DNA of 64,000 nt from Pseudomonadota bacterium. GTDB lineage: Bacteria; Pseudomonadota; Gammaproteobacteria; Burkholderiales; JABEVD01. Where the stretch lies: assembly GCA_021848825.1 (NCBI GenBank), contig JAJZTQ010000013.1, positions 672 through 64,671 of the forward strand. The letters run 5' to 3'. The position numbers were made by a program, and so were the translations under genes. The notes beneath the pieces are model-generated. The model had not been told where the DNA came from. It ran no database searches and saw only the letters and a list, made by a program, of their open reading frames with translations. This document shows, piece after piece, positions 20,460-28,551 of the stretch. Within the stretch, counting starts at the first letter, position 1. The number at the start of each line of letters is the position of its first letter.

Positions 20460-22283
20460 ATGTGCGGGATCATCGGCGCTGTTGCGCAAAGAAATGTGGT
20501 GCCAATACTGATAGAAGGACTCAAGCGCCTGGAATACAGGGGCTATGATTCTGCCGGGCTCGCCGTCGTCAACCAAGGGCTCTCGAGGCACAGGAGCGTC
20601 GGCAGGGTCGCCGAACTTGCCATCCTTTCAAAAAACGTGAAGGGAAACCTCGGCATCGCCCATACCCGTTGGGCGACGCATGGCGCGCCGACCGAAAGGA
20701 ACGCCCATCCCCATGCAAGCAGGGATGAAATCGCGGTCGTCCACAACGGCATCATAGAAAATCACGTCGAGCTGAGAAAAAAGCTGGAGGATCTCGGTTA
20801 CCAATTCGAGTCAGAGACCGACACGGAAGTGATCGCACATCTCGTCCACCATCATCGCCGGAGCACGGGCGACCTGCTTGCGGCTACCCTTGCCGCGATC
20901 AAGGAGCTCAAAGGCGCCTATGCAATCGCCGTAGTGAGCAGCAACTCACAAGACAGGATGGTTTGCGCGAGAGAGGGCAGCCCGCTTCTGCTCGGCCTCG
21001 GTATAGAAGAGAATTTCGTGGCATCGGATGCCTCTGCGCTGCTCCCTGTGACGAGAAAAATGGTCTATCTGGAAGACGGGGACGTCGTCGACGTCGGCCT
21101 GCTCGAATACCAGATCTACGACAGGGAAGGACGTCCTGCGGAGCGGAAGGTTTATCTCAGCGAGCTGAGCCAGGAAACCTCGGAGCTCGGAAAATACCGA
21201 CACTTCATGCAGAAGGAGATCTTCGAGCAGCCGAAGGCGATAGCCGACACCATCGATTCCGCGATAAACGAGTGCGGAATCTCCCCCAGACTCTTCGGTC
21301 AGGATGCGGAAGAAATCCTGAAGGATGCCGACAGCGTTACCATCATCGCCTGCGGGACCAGCTACCATGCCGGCCTTGTCGCGAGGTACTGGATCGAAAG
21401 CCTGGCGGGGATCGCCTGCAATGTGGAGGTGGCGAGCGAATATCGCTACAGGGAAAGCATATCGAACCCGAAATCGCTCTTCGTCACGATCTCCCAGTCG
21501 GGCGAAACAGCGGATACGCTCGCTGCACTCAATTACGCAAAGTCGAAGGGGCAGACGAAGACCCTGAGCATCTGCAACGTGGATGAAAGCGCGCTGGTCA
21601 GGCAGTCGAGGCTGCGTTTCCTGACAAGAGCCGGCCCTGAAATAGGGGTGGCATCGACGAAAGCCTTCACGACCCAACTCGCCGCGCTTTTCCTGCTCAC
21701 TCTGGTGCTCGCCAAAATCAGGGGAAAACTCGATTCTGCAATGGAAGCGGCGCATCTGGAATCGCTGAGGAGGCTACCCCATGCAATCAACCATGCGCTC
21801 GAAATAGAGCCGAAGATTGTCAGATGGGCGGAAAAATTCTCTGAAAAGCATCATGCCCTTTTCCTCGCACGCGGGGTGCATTATCCCATTGCGCTGGAAG
21901 GCGCGCTGAAGCTGAAGGAAATATCCTACATTCACGCAGAGGCCTATCCTGCCGGGGAACTCAAGCACGGGCCGCTTGCGCTCGTGGACAGCAACATGCC
22001 GGTCGTCTGCGTCGCGCCCAGCGACGGGCTTCTGGAGAAGCTGAAATCGAATCTGCAGGAAGTCAGGGCGAGGGGAGGGGAGCTGTATGTGGTCGCGGAC
22101 GAGGATTCCCATTTCCATGACGAAGAATCGATCCACGTCGTCAGGATGGCCGAGCACGCGGATCATCTGAGCCCCATCCTGCATGCGATCCCGCTTCAGC
22201 TTCTCGCCTATCATGCCGCCCTTCAGAAGGGAACGGATGTCGACAAGCCCAGGAATCTTGCGAAGTCGGTGACAGTGGAATAG
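20460..22283 (+). CDS. glmS: Glutamine-fructose-6-phosphate aminotransferase
   Basis: MCGIIG (N-terminal Cys), [27 protein letters not shown] and C-terminal [11 protein letters not shown]. Confidence 0.99.
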
Positions 22284-22318
22284 CTGTCACAAAACCGCAA
22301 CCAATCTGCTGATATAGT
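22284..22318 (+). promoter_or_regulatory. Pho-box-like PhoB site plus -10 element upstream of the GT4 gene
   Basis: CTGTCAC-AAAA-CCGCAAC (22284-22301; half-sites 7/7 and 5/7 to CTGTCAC/CTGTAAC), then 11 bp, then TATAGT (22313-22318). Confidence 0.5.
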
Positions 22319-22324
22319 TGGCGG

Positions 22325-23482
22325 ATGAATATCTTGATGATTTCAGACGTCTATTTTCCGCGCGTCAACGGCGTTTCGACATCGATCGAGACATTCAGGA
22401 CCGAGCTTTCCAAGAGAGGCGCAGAGGTCACGTTGATCGCCCCCTCGTACGGCGAGAAGGAAAACCAGCAAGGCATCGTCCGTATCCCTTCCAGGAAGGT
22501 GATGTTCGATCCTGAAGACAGGTTGATGGCTTACGGATCGATCAGGCGCCTCGCAAAGGCGCTGGGCGAAAAGCAATTCGACCTCGTCCACATCCAGACC
22601 CCATTCGTCGCCCATTATGCCGCAGTCAGCCTCGCGAAGAGGCTGAAACTGCCGATGGTCGTGACTTACCATACATTTTTCGAGGAATATCTCTACCACT
22701 ACATTCCCTTTCTCCCGGCAGCGTGGCTGAAGGGCTTTGCCAGGCGATTTTCAAGAAAGCAGTGCAATGACGTCGATGCCGTCGTGGTGCCATCGTCAGC
22801 CATGGCTCAAACGCTCGAAGCCTACGGCGTCGAAAAACCCATGCACATCATACCGACGGGCATACCCGAGAGGATGTTCGAAAACGGCAGAAGACAGGAA
22901 TTCAGGAAGAAGCACGGCATCGCAGAAGATGCGCCGGTGATGCTGTTCGTAGGCAGGGTCGCCTTCGAAAAGAACATAGGATTCCTGCTGGAAGCAACCG
23001 ATATCGCGCGGAAAACCATCCCCGGGATAATGCTCATCGTCGCAGGCGAAGGGCCGGCATTGAAGACGATAGAGAAGCAGATCAAATCGATGAGGCTCGA
23101 AAGCAATGCGATGCTGATAGGCTACATGGACAGGGAAACCCAGCTGAGGGACTGCTACAGCGCGGCAGATGCCTTCGTCTTCGCTTCCCGAACCGAGACC
23201 CAGGGCCTGGTGTTGCTGGAAGCGATGGCGGCGGGCCTTCCTGTGATTTCCACTGCCCACATGGGCACGCGCGACATCCTGAAACAGGGCTCGGGCTCCG
23301 TCGTGCCAGAAGACCATCCGGAAAGCTTCTCGGAGGAGATGGTGAGGGTCATGTCGGATGAAAAATTGCGGGCCAGACTTGGGATTGAGGCCAAAATCTA
23401 TGCGAAAGCATGGAGCTCAGGGGCGATGGCAGAAAAGATGCTGGATCTGTACAAAGAATTGGCGTCCGGTAGTTCAACCTAG
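22325..23482 (+). CDS. GT4 glycosyltransferase, diacylglycerol alpha-glycosyltransferase (UGDG/MGS-like)
   Basis: SDVYFPRVNGVSTSI, VHIQTPF, TYHTFFEEYLYHY, FVGRVAFEKN and the EX7E motif ETQGLVLLEAMAAGLP. Family assigned by recall of GT4 glycolipid synthases. Confidence 0.8.
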   Translation: MNILMISDVYFPRVNGVSTSIETFRTELSKRGAEVTLIAPSYGEKENQQGIVRIPSRKVMFDPEDRLMAYGSIRRLAKALGEKQFDLVHIQTPFVAHYAAVSLAKRLKLPMVVTYHTFFEEYLYHYIPFLPAAWLKGFARRFSRKQCNDVDAVVVPSSAMAQTLEAYGVEKPMHIIPTGIPERMFENGRRQEFRKKHGIAEDAPVMLFVGRVAFEKNIGFLLEATDIARKTIPGIMLIVAGEGPALKTIEKQIKSMRLESNAMLIGYMDRETQLRDCYSAADAFVFASRTETQGLVLLEAMAAGLPVISTAHMGTRDILKQGSGSVVPEDHPESFSEEMVRVMSDEKLRARLGIEAKIYAKAWSSGAMAEKMLDLYKELASGSST

Positions 23483-23501
23483 GCAACTATTCCGGTAAGA
23501 T
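23473..23501 (+). promoter_or_regulatory. Putative promoter of the orphan parA
   Basis: TTCAAC (23473-23478), 17 bp, TAAGAT (23496-23501). Confidence 0.4.
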
Positions 23502-23529
23502 AGCATGGTCAGGACAAGATCGGTCAGGC

Positions 23530-24291
23530 ATGGCGACCATAGCAGTCTTCAATCAAAAAGGCGGTGTCGGCAAGACGACAACCAGCCTGAACATAGCCGC
23601 AGCGCTTGCAATGCTAGAAAGGAATCCGCTCGCGATCGACCTCGATCCGCAGGCGCATCTGACGCATTCTCTCGGCGTGGACCAGGCCACCTCGATAGGC
23701 ATTTCCTCCTTTTTCAAGGATGAACGCTCGCTGCTCGATCTGATCCAGTACAGGCCTTCAGGACTCAGGGTGATCCCTTCCCATACCGATCTATCCAAGA
23801 TCGATGCCCTTTCGGGAAAGACCAGGAACGTAGCCACGAAGCTGCGCGAAGGCCTGTCCGAACATTTGGCCAGGGAAAATGCCCCCATCATCATCGATTG
23901 CTGTCCGATGCTGGGGATTCTGTCACTCAATGCCATCATTTCCGCAGACAAGGTGCTGATCCCTGTTTCAGCCGATTTCCTCTCGATGCAGGGGGTCCAG
24001 CGGGTTGTGGCCCTGCTCGACGTGCTCCATGCGCGGTTCGGCAGGGAATTCGATTTTGCCATACTCCTGACCAGATTCGACTCGAGGCGCAAGCTTTCCT
24101 ACACCACTTACGACAAGCTGAAGGAAAGATACGGGGAAAAGGTCTGCGACACCCGCATCATGGAGAACGTCAGCCTTGCCGAGAGCCCGGCATTCGGAAG
24201 GGATGTTTTCGCTCATTCGCCCGGAAGCCAGGGCGCGAGGGATTATTTCTCCCTGACTCACGAATTGCTGGAAAAAGGATTTTTCGACTAG
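23530..24291 (+). CDS. Orphan ParA/MinD-family ATPase
   Basis: NQKGGVGKTT, DLDPQAHLT, IDCCP, PVSADFLS, ENVSLAESPAFG; no adjacent parB. Confidence 0.92.
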   Translation: MATIAVFNQKGGVGKTTTSLNIAAALAMLERNPLAIDLDPQAHLTHSLGVDQATSIGISSFFKDERSLLDLIQYRPSGLRVIPSHTDLSKIDALSGKTRNVATKLREGLSEHLARENAPIIIDCCPMLGILSLNAIISADKVLIPVSADFLSMQGVQRVVALLDVLHARFGREFDFAILLTRFDSRRKLSYTTYDKLKERYGEKVCDTRIMENVSLAESPAFGRDVFAHSPGSQGARDYFSLTHELLEKGFFD

Positions 24292-26823: not shown

Positions 26824-28551
26824 TCACATTTTTTCCGGTGCGCTCACCCCGAGCAGCCCGAGTCCGTTGCGGATGACTTGCTGCACGCAGGCAATGAGAC
26901 AGAGCCTTGCAAGCTTCACTGCCTCGTCCTCGACCAGGAAATGAGAAGCATTGTAGTAGCTGTGGAACCCGGATGCCAGGTCTTTGAGGTAGAAGGCAAT
27001 CAGATGCGGTGAAAGTTCCTTTGCCGCACTTTCTATCAGGGCTGGATAATCGATGAGCTGCTGCATCAATTCGAGCTCATGAACGGCATCGAGGCTCGAT
27101 GCGTCTGCTTCCGCAAGGATTCCCTGATCCCCGCCCCATTGCTCGAGGACGCTCGCAATTCGCGCATGCGCATACTGAACGTAATAAACGGGATTCTCGT
27201 TGCTTTGCGATTTTGCAAGATCGAGATCAAAGTCCAGATGCTGATCGCATTTCCTCAATACATAGAAAAACCTTGCTGCATCGTTCCCTACTTCTTTCCT
27301 CAACTCTCTCAGCGTAACGAAGTCGCCGCTCCTCGTCGACATCGAAGCCTTCTTCCCTTCGCGGTAAAGTACGGCGAACTGAACGAGCGCAATCTCCAGT
27401 TTTTCAGCAGGCGCTCCCGCCGCAGTGAGCGCTCCCTTCACCCTGGCGATATAGCCATGATGGTCGGCTCCCCAGATGTCGATGACGCGGTCGAAGCTGC
27501 GTTCGAACTTGTTCAGGTGATAGGCGATGTCCGAGGCGAAATAGGTGTAGAGGCCGTTTTCCCGCTGCACGACCCTGTCCTTTTCATCTCCGAATTCGGT
27601 AGATCTGAACCATTTGGCCCCGTCCTGAATGTAGATGTGGCCAGCTTCCTCGAGCGTCCTTACCGCCTTCTCGACCATGCCGCTGTCGAAAAGCGATTGC
27701 TCGGAGAACCAGGTATCGAAAACCACGCCGAATTCGAGCAGATCGTTCCTGCAGTCCCCCAGTTGTTCGTTGAGGACGAAGTCGTGGATGTAATGGTAAT
27801 CCGGACCGAGCAGCCTTTTCGCATTCGCGATCAGGCTGTCGAGATAGGCATCTTCGTTGGACATTTCGACAGGGATCCCGAAAAGCACGGCGCCCTGGGG
27901 GTGCTTGTAGCGATCCCCATGCGCTTCGTGTATCAGCTTCGCCATGTCACGAACATAGCTTCCCTGGTAGGCGTTCGGCGGGAAAAGAATGTCCACCCCG
28001 ACAAGTTCGAGATAGCGTAGCCAGGTGGAGAGCGTCAGGATATCCATCTGCCGCCCTGCATCGTTCACGTAATATTCCCTCGAGACTTTGAACCCTGCGG
28101 CCTCCAGAAGATTGGAAAGGCTTGCGCCGAATGCAGCGCCCCTTCCGTGGCCGACATGCAGGGGGCCGGTCGGGTTGGCCGAAACGAATTCGACCTGGAC
28201 TTTGCTGCCTTTGCCAAGATCCGATTTCCCGAAGGCTTCCCTCGCCTCCAGGATATGCCTCAGAAACAGCTGCTTGGAGGATTTCCTGATGAAAACGTTT
28301 ATGAAACCCGCCCCGGCAATTTCCAGCTTTTCGACATGTTCGGAAGCCGGGAAGGCTGCCAGTATTTCCGATGCGACCTGCCTCGGATTTTTCTTCAGCG
28401 ATTTCGCAAGCTGCATTGCGATATTGCAGGCGTAGTCGCCGTGAGCGGCAAGCTTGGGGCGCTCGAGATGGATTTCAGGCGCAGAAGGAGAAATCTTTTC
28501 TGCAGCCTCGGAAAAAAGCTTGGCGAGATGGAATTTGAAGTCAGGGATCAT
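26824..28551 (-). CDS. argS: Arginine-tRNA ligase
   Basis: HGDYACN, EFVSANPTGPLHVGHGRG, WGADHHGY, MSTRSG, VYYVQYAHAR. Confidence 0.99.
   Translation of the reverse strand: MIPDFKFHLAKLFSEAAEKISPSAPEIHLERPKLAAHGDYACNIAMQLAKSLKKNPRQVASEILAAFPASEHVEKLEIAGAGFINVFIRKSSKQLFLRHILEAREAFGKSDLGKGSKVQVEFVSANPTGPLHVGHGRGAAFGASLSNLLEAAGFKVSREYYVNDAGRQMDILTLSTWLRYLELVGVDILFPPNAYQGSYVRDMAKLIHEAHGDRYKHPQGAVLFGIPVEMSNEDAYLDSLIANAKRLLGPDYHYIHDFVLNEQLGDCRNDLLEFGVVFDTWFSEQSLFDSGMVEKAVRTLEEAGHIYIQDGAKWFRSTEFGDEKDRVVQRENGLYTYFASDIAYHLNKFERSFDRVIDIWGADHHGYIARVKGALTAAGAPAEKLEIALVQFAVLYREGKKASMSTRSGDFVTLRELRKEVGNDAARFFYVLRKCDQHLDFDLDLAKSQSNENPVYYVQYAHARIASVLEQWGGDQGILAEADASSLDAVHELELMQQLIDYPALIESAAKELSPHLIAFYLKDLASGFHSYYNASHFLVEDEAVKLARLCLIACVQQVIRNGLGLLGVSAPEKM

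Follow-up and report, generated by a model that had tools for sequence, protein, structure and literature searches.

The locus described here raises the question of what lies in the short gap between glmS and the glycosyltransferase gene that follows it in the genome of an uncultured member of the Burkholderiales. The DNA analysed, referred to as the window, is a stretch of 64,000 nucleotides (nt) from contig JAJZTQ010000013.1, which is contig C42 of the source genome. The gene downstream of glmS specifies a retaining glycosyltransferase of family 4 (GT4), termed GT4a, and the spacer between the two genes is 41 base pairs (bp) long. An initial annotation of the sequence had read the spacer as a Pho-box promoter and GT4a as a gene for remodelling of the membrane during phosphate starvation. 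The 41-bp gap is most likely a PhoB-dependent promoter for a sugar-lipid synthase. For the combined regulatory and enzymatic reading, i.e., a PhoB-activated promoter in front of an Agt-type diacylglycerol glycosyltransferase, a probability of roughly two in three is estimated.

The source genome is 2.74 Mb in size, with 56% G+C, and is 99.7% complete. Its closest public relatives are metagenome-assembled genomes (MAGs) named as uncultured Burkholderiales or "Proteobacteria bacterium". Two sets of sequences were used for comparison. The genus set consists of nine genomes, i.e., the source genome (G000) and its relatives G001 to G008. The outgroup set consists of 75 loci outside of the genus, with GT4a orthologues that are 51-61% identical; together with five genus loci these make up the 80 loci that were fetched (proteins 51-73% identical). 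The outgroup loci are from Sulfuriferula, Sulfuricella, Gallionella, Thauera, Dechloromonas, Novimethylophilus, Thiothrix, Competibacter and many MAGs. It should be noted that these loci are not phylogenetically independent, but they span many families, and in none of them is glmS a neighbour.

A predicted PhoB promoter behind glmS

The glmS gene (glutamine--fructose-6-phosphate transaminase; 20460..22283, plus strand; TIGR01135, 851.6 bits with a cut-off of 418; Pfam SIS and GATase domains) ends in the stop codon TAG at positions 22281-22283, as read from the sequence. At the next base begins the candidate Pho box CTGTCAC-AAAA-CCGCAAC (22284..22301, plus strand), which is made up of a first half-site CTGTCAC (22284-22290), the spacer AAAA (22291-22294) and a second half-site CCGCAAC (22295-22301), and is predicted to be the site of a PhoB dimer at the -35 position. 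The box is followed by 11 bp (caatctgctga), by the -10 hexamer TATAGT (22313..22318, plus strand) and, after a further 6 bp (tggcgg), by the ATG of GT4a (22325..23482, plus strand; 385 amino acids (aa)). This layout of a 7-4-7 box, 11 bp, TATAGT, 6 bp and the GT4 start had been described in the initial annotation and is exact to the base.

When the plain consensus of E. coli, CTGTCATAWAWCTGTCAY, is taken as reference, 14 of 18 positions agree, with six of seven in the first half-site, and 36 other sites in the genome are equal or better. A count against the E. coli consensus is too blunt, and it was therefore replaced by a matrix specific to the genus. This position weight matrix was built from 14 Pho boxes of the genus phoB and pstS genes, with all GT4 sites left out, and was used to scan both strands of the whole genome, a scan that had been proposed along with the promoter. 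The two highest scores are those of the genome's own pstS (27.7 bits) and phoB (26.3 bits) boxes, both of which are in the training set. The site at 22284 is third genome-wide with 24.6 bits, and is thus the top position outside of the two training promoters; the next match has 18.7 bits. The site is also among the few matrix matches that have a TAnnnT hexamer at the proper distance. Judged from these sequence comparisons, the Pho-box match at 22284 is not a chance one.

PhoB itself is encoded in the genome (TIGR02154, 359 bits with a cut-off of 296), and the open reading frame (ORF) immediately behind phoB resembles a PhoR sensor kinase, as judged by eye and without a family search. A PstS-type gene (PF12849, PBP_like_2, 130.5 bits) starts a row of four ORFs read as pstSCAB (C21:40699-44410), a row in which the family match was made for the first gene only. 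The phoB promoter consists of CTGTCAC-AATG-CCGTAAT, 10 bp and TAATAT, and the pstS promoter of CTGTAAC-AATA-GTGAAAC, 10 bp and TATGAT. The site at 22284 shows the same architecture and shares 15 of 18 bases with the box of phoB.

Each of the eight genus relatives has a GT4a orthologue, 60-77% identical, and each time it comes directly after glmS. In all nine genomes the glmS stop codon is followed by C[TC]GTCAC, a 4-bp spacer, a variable second half-site, 10-11 bp and an invariant TATAGT. The spacer is AAAA in eight genomes and ACAA in one, and the second half-site ends with AA plus one base, which is a T in seven of the nine. With its likeness to the genus phoB and pstS boxes and its retention throughout the genus, the proposed Pho-box promoter is upheld as far as sequence can tell.

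Pho boxes are also associated with orthologues outside of the genus. A forward-strand box with at least 11 of 14 positions matching CTGTCAT-N4-CTGTCAY is present within 150 nt upstream at 28 of the 80 fetched loci; at the same threshold these 80 loci gave no match on the reverse strand and none inside the gene. Examples are CTGACATGTTGCTGTCAT from Novimethylophilus, CTGTCATACGTTCGTCAC from Sulfuriferula and CCGTCATCAGTCCGTCAT from genome G035. Where plcP precedes the orthologue co-directionally, the box is situated about 40-60 nt before plcP.

A generic scan of positions 21800-24000 revealed no pair of sigma-70 -35 and -10 elements. This is expected for an activator-dependent promoter, although the absence itself is not evidence of one. 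The distance between the -10 hexamer and the ATG is 6 nt in six of the nine genus genomes and 26-28 nt in the other three, and no Shine-Dalgarno sequence is present between the -10 hexamer and the GT4a ATG. The 6-nt gap and the missing Shine-Dalgarno sequence lead to the prediction of a leaderless mRNA, with a putative transcription start at or adjacent to the A of the ATG (22324..22326, plus strand). Thus the GT4a transcript is probably leaderless or nearly so. The box of GT4a and that of a second GT4 gene described below, GT4b (box at C41:40239), are both found in very short spacers just past the stop codon of the upstream gene, and the two PhoB promoters appear to be packed between co-directional genes without terminators.

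Other Pho-related sequences were noted elsewhere in the genome. The phoU gene is in the region C8:98811-101014, separate from the putative pstSCAB operon; it adjoins a 498-aa ppx-like ORF and is downstream of an rpiA-like ORF, both identified by eye. A strong E. coli-type box, CTGTCATGCGCCTGTCAC (C8:97994-98011), is found in the divergent gap between a pyruvate-kinase-like gene and a gene of the metallo-beta-lactamase fold. On the minus strand of contig C13, at about 27100-27190, the overlapping Pho repeats CTGTAAC AAAC CCGTCAC AATT CTTTCAT precede a 739-aa ORF that by eye resembles an outer-membrane receptor of the TonB-dependent type. The sequence CCGTCAC AAAA CTGCAAT at C14:7292 (18.7 bits) is ahead of an ORF that, also by eye, is methyl-accepting-chemotaxis-like. 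It is plausible that the receptor-like and the chemotaxis-like ORFs are further members of the Pho regulon.

The glycosyltransferase, its gene neighbourhoods and its acceptor

The GT4a protein displays the N- and C-terminal domains of GT4 enzymes (PF13439, 129 bits, and PF00534, 141 bits) and an EX7E motif at E291-E299. The top three NCBIfam models are all membrane-lipid glycosyltransferases, each with a score well below its cut-off: alpha-monoglucosyldiacylglycerol synthase (alMGS; NF049988) with 153.4 bits, N-acetylglucosaminyl-phosphatidylglycerol (GlcNAc-PG) synthase (NF053787) with 133.8 bits, and IagA/BgsA with 104 bits. Many homologues that are 55-58% identical carry the JGI label 1,2-diacylglycerol 3-alpha-glucosyltransferase, which is an automated name. 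The AlphaFold2 model (pLDDT 88) has a GT-B fold, with TM-scores of 0.77-0.80 to MshA, BshA and PimB', and of 0.7-0.8 when GlgM, PimA and WaaG are included. Sequence and fold searches of the PDB revealed only generic GT4 enzymes (BshA, MshA, PimA/PimB' and WaaG). To our knowledge there is no solved structure of an Agt or an alMGS-type enzyme in the PDB, and the structural matches thus confirm the fold and are silent on the substrate. The N-terminal domain is basic, with a pI of 9.3 compared to 6.0 for the C-terminal domain, and the protein has no transmembrane segment, which fits a peripheral membrane enzyme.

The strongest evidence for a function is the gene context of the orthologues. Neighbours were counted by tblastn in about 4 kb around the 75 outgroup orthologues. 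A PlcP-like metallophosphoesterase is found at 18 of these loci, a PAP2 phosphatase at 17, a prokaryotic diacylglycerol kinase (DgkA) at eight and an OlsB-like ornithine-lipid acyltransferase also at eight; at least one of the four is present at 31 of the 75. A second GT4 of a distinct subfamily (GT4b) is found at about 13 loci and a PhoB-like response regulator at nine. Among the arrangements seen are olsB-plcP-dgkA-GT4 (locus L100) and plcP-dgkA-GT4 (L082, Gallionella). The Pho boxes at the orthologues and these neighbours point to a GT4 for membrane remodelling under phosphate starvation, and thereby agree with the core of the initial annotation. GT4a is considered a putative Agt orthologue on the basis of gene context and family scores.

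The source genome also has an OlsB-like ornithine-lipid N-acyltransferase gene (C3:2228-3064, minus strand), which is 59% identical to the one found beside GT4 orthologues elsewhere, with a Pho-like box, ATGTAATCAAAGTGTCAC, about 50-70 nt upstream. It may be another gene of the regulon for phosphorus-free lipids. The box is not recovered by the genus matrix, the lower ranks of which do not represent a list of the regulon.

The genus itself differs in the supply of diacylglycerol. A search for PlcP in the source genome revealed only an LpxH-like weak match of 34.6 bits, and in the eight relatives at most a weak match (E value of 1e-9 or worse), with none in G006. A clear PlcP, with 49-71% identity, is present in outgroup genomes G011, G033, G035 and G036, i.e., in four of the five families with GT4 orthologues that were checked. 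Without PlcP, diacylglycerol would have to come from another source. The second glycosyltransferase gene, GT4b (C41:40303-41490), the product of which is 31% identical to GT4a, is situated between dgkA and a PAP2 gene (C41:41456-41995) in a cluster at C41:39848-41995. In the source genome its box consists of three 11-bp repeats, GTGTCAC AAAA CGGTCAA GAAA CCTTCAT, which start 14 nt past the dgkA stop codon; in seven relatives the box is CTGTCAC AAAA CGGTCAA CAAA GCGTCAT and begins at the dgkA stop or only a few bases away from it. Behind the repeats there is a -10-like hexamer. In GT4b the genus appears to have another lipid glycosyltransferase under Pho control, with a candidate diacylglycerol supplier beside it, and the PAP2 phosphatase would be the obvious candidate source, with phosphatidate as its substrate.

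The GT4b start codon is spanned by a palindrome, imperfect and with about 9-10 bp, GTGTGCTTTC-ATG-GAAAGyGCAC (C41:40285-40320 and loci L140-L146). It is present in all genus genomes, and the L144 variant is near-palindromic by eye. The palindrome could conceal the start codon in a hairpin, or it could be an operator.

From these data the following mechanism is proposed. When phosphate is scarce, phosphorylated PhoB would bind to the two repeats, phased at 11 bp, that take the place of a -35 element, and the bound PhoB would recruit RNA polymerase to the TATAGT hexamer, i.e., GT4a would be induced at low phosphate. Transcription would start at the ATG or within one base of it and result in a leaderless or nearly leaderless mRNA. 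The protein would be a soluble or monotopic, retaining glycosyltransferase of the Agt type and the GT-B fold that moves a hexose or a hexuronic acid, donated by UDP-glucose or by UDP-glucuronate, onto diacylglycerol. In this genus, which has no PlcP, the diacylglycerol may be supplied by the PAP2 phosphatase encoded beside GT4b. The expected products are phosphorus-free glycolipids, i.e., monoglucosyldiacylglycerol (MGDG) and glucuronic acid diacylglycerol (GADG), in place of phospholipids, an exchange by which bacteria are known to spare phosphorus.

Several observations weigh against this proposal. The second half-site, CCGCAAC, agrees with the E. coli consensus at only four of seven positions. 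The matrix is a narrow one, from 14 closely related sites, and does not recover the GT4b box. With just 6 nt between the -10 hexamer and the ATG, translation would have to be leaderless, and this is uncommon. There is no terminator behind glmS, and transcripts of the atp-glmUS genes could also read on into GT4a. Neither the source genome nor any of the eight relatives has PlcP, from which the diacylglycerol usually comes, and GT4a does not reach the curated cut-off of any NCBIfam model for glycolipid synthases (153 bits compared to 400).

The last two points also speak for an alternative in which the promoter is PhoB-dependent and the enzyme glycosylates something other than diacylglycerol, such as the lipopolysaccharide (LPS) core, an exopolysaccharide primer or a small molecule. 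The protein is under every NCBIfam equivalog cut-off, and the nearest structures are of enzymes that use malate, inositol phosphate or phosphatidylinositol (BshA, MshA and PimA/PimB'). In addition, Pho-controlled glycosylation of LPS is known in E. coli O157, and Pho-regulated LPS modification is described in a preprint (bioRxiv 10.1101/536201). However the structural matches cannot discriminate between acceptors, the three top family models are all membrane-lipid glycosyltransferases, and the orthologues adjoin plcP, dgkA, PAP2 and olsB rather than polysaccharide or LPS clusters. Thus an acceptor other than diacylglycerol is considered unlikely.

The inverted repeat and the sugar donor

A further alternative concerns the promoter itself. 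The first half-site is also the right arm of an inverted repeat, GTGACAG-N8-CTGTCAC (22269..22290, plus strand), with 7-nt arms at 22269-22275 and 22284-22290 that are 100% complementary. The initial annotation had named this repeat as another possible explanation of the CTGTCAC sequence. According to this view the Pho motif is not a working PhoB site; instead, CTGTCAC is one arm of a stem loop at the glmS mRNA's 3′ end that would stabilise the message or terminate transcription, and GT4a is transcribed by read-through. The repeat is real and its pairing perfect, and the 41 bp between the genes are without a terminator. The 70-nt RNA window 22255-22324 has a predicted fold of -23.3 kcal/mol (z = -2.6), and in relative L010 both arms have changed in such a way that the pairing is still perfect, maybe by coincidence.

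As the main explanation, however, the repeat appears to be mostly incidental. The left arm consists of the codons for Val-Thr-Val in the universally conserved GlmS C-terminus (…SVTVE*), and the pairing of the arms is perfect in only three of the nine genus genomes. At the Thr codon's third position the nine genomes have A, G, G, C, C, T, G, A and C; this wobble position takes all four bases, which argues that the pairing is not selected. As GTGAC in the Val-Thr codons is complementary to GTCAC in the Pho half-site, the repeat is largely a by-product of the two sequences. The outer stem of the predicted fold is not conserved. No terminator was called on the plus strand in 21800-24000; an intrinsic terminator for glmS requires a GC-rich stem and a U-tract, and here the stem is followed by AAAACC with no U-tract. 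The box is kept despite shifts of 1-2 nt relative to the stop codon, and also where glmS is not a neighbour. Nor would a hairpin account for the second half-site, for the spacing or for the TATAGT that never varies. With the wobble-position analysis the inverted repeat was rejected as the main explanation, and it is very improbable that the stem loop takes the place of a PhoB site.

The PhoB promoter with an Agt-type enzyme is also preferred to the suggestion, made in the initial annotation from the position of GT4a behind glmU-glmS, that the donor is an amino sugar. In this alternative GT4a uses UDP-N-acetylglucosamine (UDP-GlcNAc) from the glmU-glmS pathway to form GlcNAc-diacylglycerol or GlcNAc-phosphatidylglycerol. 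GT4a is directly behind glmU-glmS in all nine genus genomes, the GlcNAc-PG synthase GpgS is the second NCBIfam model, and the top PDB sequence matches are BshA enzymes, which use UDP-GlcNAc. However glmS is beside the orthologue at none of the 75 outgroup loci, i.e., the adjacency is restricted to the genus. In an alignment with 74 outgroup orthologues, 111 columns show conservation in 93% or more of these proteins, and the genus keeps 108 of the columns; since the three changes are only swaps among Leu, Ile, Met and Phe, nothing points to a switch of donor. GpgS of P. aeruginosa acts with a deacetylase (gpgD) and a putative flippase (gpgF) in the operon gpgSDF (PMC12713373). No gpgD or gpgF is found near GT4a, which is surrounded by glmS and by genes for a ParA-like ATPase, an SDR and DsbA-like proteins, and the score of 134 bits is far under the GpgS cut-off of 480. 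A GpgS-type synthase of an amino-sugar lipid was rejected on this score and on the missing partners, and the amino-sugar donor has a slim chance at best. Slimmer still is the chance of a composite, in which PlcP-independent remodelling in the genus combines two Pho-box GT4s and diacylglycerol that PAP2 releases from phosphatidate, instead of head-group cleavage of phospholipids, with GT4a using UDP-GlcNAc, the donor argued against above, to form an amino-sugar diacylglycerol lipid.

The order of genes around the element is atpG, atpD, atpC, glmU, glmS, GT4a and a gene for a ParA/BcsQ-like P-loop ATPase. The 650-aa ORF that covers glmU is an over-extended frame, in which the GlmU match starts at about residue 200. 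The ParA-like gene (23530..24291, plus strand; PF13614) is 47 bp downstream of GT4a. It was detected by tblastn at five of five genus loci and its start is read behind GT4a in all nine genomes, while near the orthologues of the outgroup tblastn detected it at just four of 75 loci. A terminator scan revealed no terminator between GT4a and the ParA-like gene. The two are possibly co-transcribed, and the role of the ATPase in the element is uncertain. The 47-bp spacer (23483-23529) contains two blocks, GGTAAGATAGC and GGACAAGATC, that are conserved in most of the genus, which suggests a promoter or a regulatory site belonging to the ParA-like gene.

Comparison with known systems

Pho-box-controlled Agt enzymes are already established in Alpha-, Beta- and Gammaproteobacteria, and the locus adds no new principle. 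It provides a confident prediction of function and regulation for a gene labelled only "glycosyltransferase" in an uncultured lineage of Burkholderiales, and the prediction extends to its many relatives in Thiothrix, in methylotrophs and in oxidisers of sulfur and iron. It also defines the Pho box of the genus as C[TC]GTCAC, AAAA and a half-site ending with AA plus one base. The features specific to the lineage are the relocation behind glmS, the loss of PlcP and the probable leaderless start. Two of these are modest deviations that should be flagged, i.e., the lost PlcP, with PAP2 possibly opening another route to diacylglycerol, and a PhoB-dependent transcript that is probably leaderless. 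Should these bacteria live where phosphate limitation is of importance, GT4a could be used as a marker of phosphorus stress in metatranscriptomes.

Among known enzymes, the best-scoring family for GT4a is the Acholeplasma-type alpha-monoglucosyldiacylglycerol synthase (NF049988; EC 2.4.1.337). The alignment extends from end to end, with residues 1-380 of GT4a on profile positions 1-388 of 398. However, unlike members of this family, GT4a has 153 bits against a cut-off of 400 and is thus not an equivalog. With GpgS it shares the GT4 family and the match to a lipid-glycosyltransferase model, and it differs by the low score (134 compared to 480) and by the lack of gpgD and gpgF as neighbours.

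The promoter is similar to the PhoB promoters of E. coli pstS, phoA and phoB in having two 7-bp repeats with an 11-bp period in place of the -35 element. The box is 10-11 bp upstream of a TAnnnT hexamer, compared to about 10 bp in E. coli, and the layout of the GT4a promoter is the same as that of the genus's own phoB and pstS promoters. The sequences differ. The E. coli box is CTGTCAT-N4-CTGTCAT, whereas that of the genus is C[TC]GTCAC, AAAA and a second half-site that ends with AA plus a base and is far from CTGTCAT. Unlike E. coli pstS, GT4a has a single box and not several repeats, and unlike the E. coli PhoB promoters its transcript is predicted to be leaderless. The Pho-box promoter of E. 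coli pstS is likewise located just downstream of glmS.

The closest functional parallels are the PlcP-Agt systems, with Agt of Agrobacterium tumefaciens and SAR11 HTCC7211 and P. aeruginosa Agt1 (PA3218) and Agt2 (PA0842) as members. Genes for plcP-agt are found in SAR11 and roseobacters (PMC4796936). In B. cenocepacia the proteins of plcP-agt-dagK (BCAL2364-2366) rise on phosphate depletion, and agt alone yields both MGDG and GADG in E. coli (PMC13691135). In P. aeruginosa, Pho boxes are predicted for both plcP-agt1 and agt2 (PMC8528852). The orthologues of GT4a are similar to these systems in that they are found in operons with a PlcP-like metallophosphoesterase, DgkA and often OlsB. The genus described here differs from them by being without PlcP, by the relocation of GT4a to the 3′ end of glmS, and by a promoter contained within the 41-bp spacer, with its -10 hexamer only 6 nt from the ATG. 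As with Agt1 and Agt2 of P. aeruginosa, the source genome has two GT4 genes with Pho boxes.

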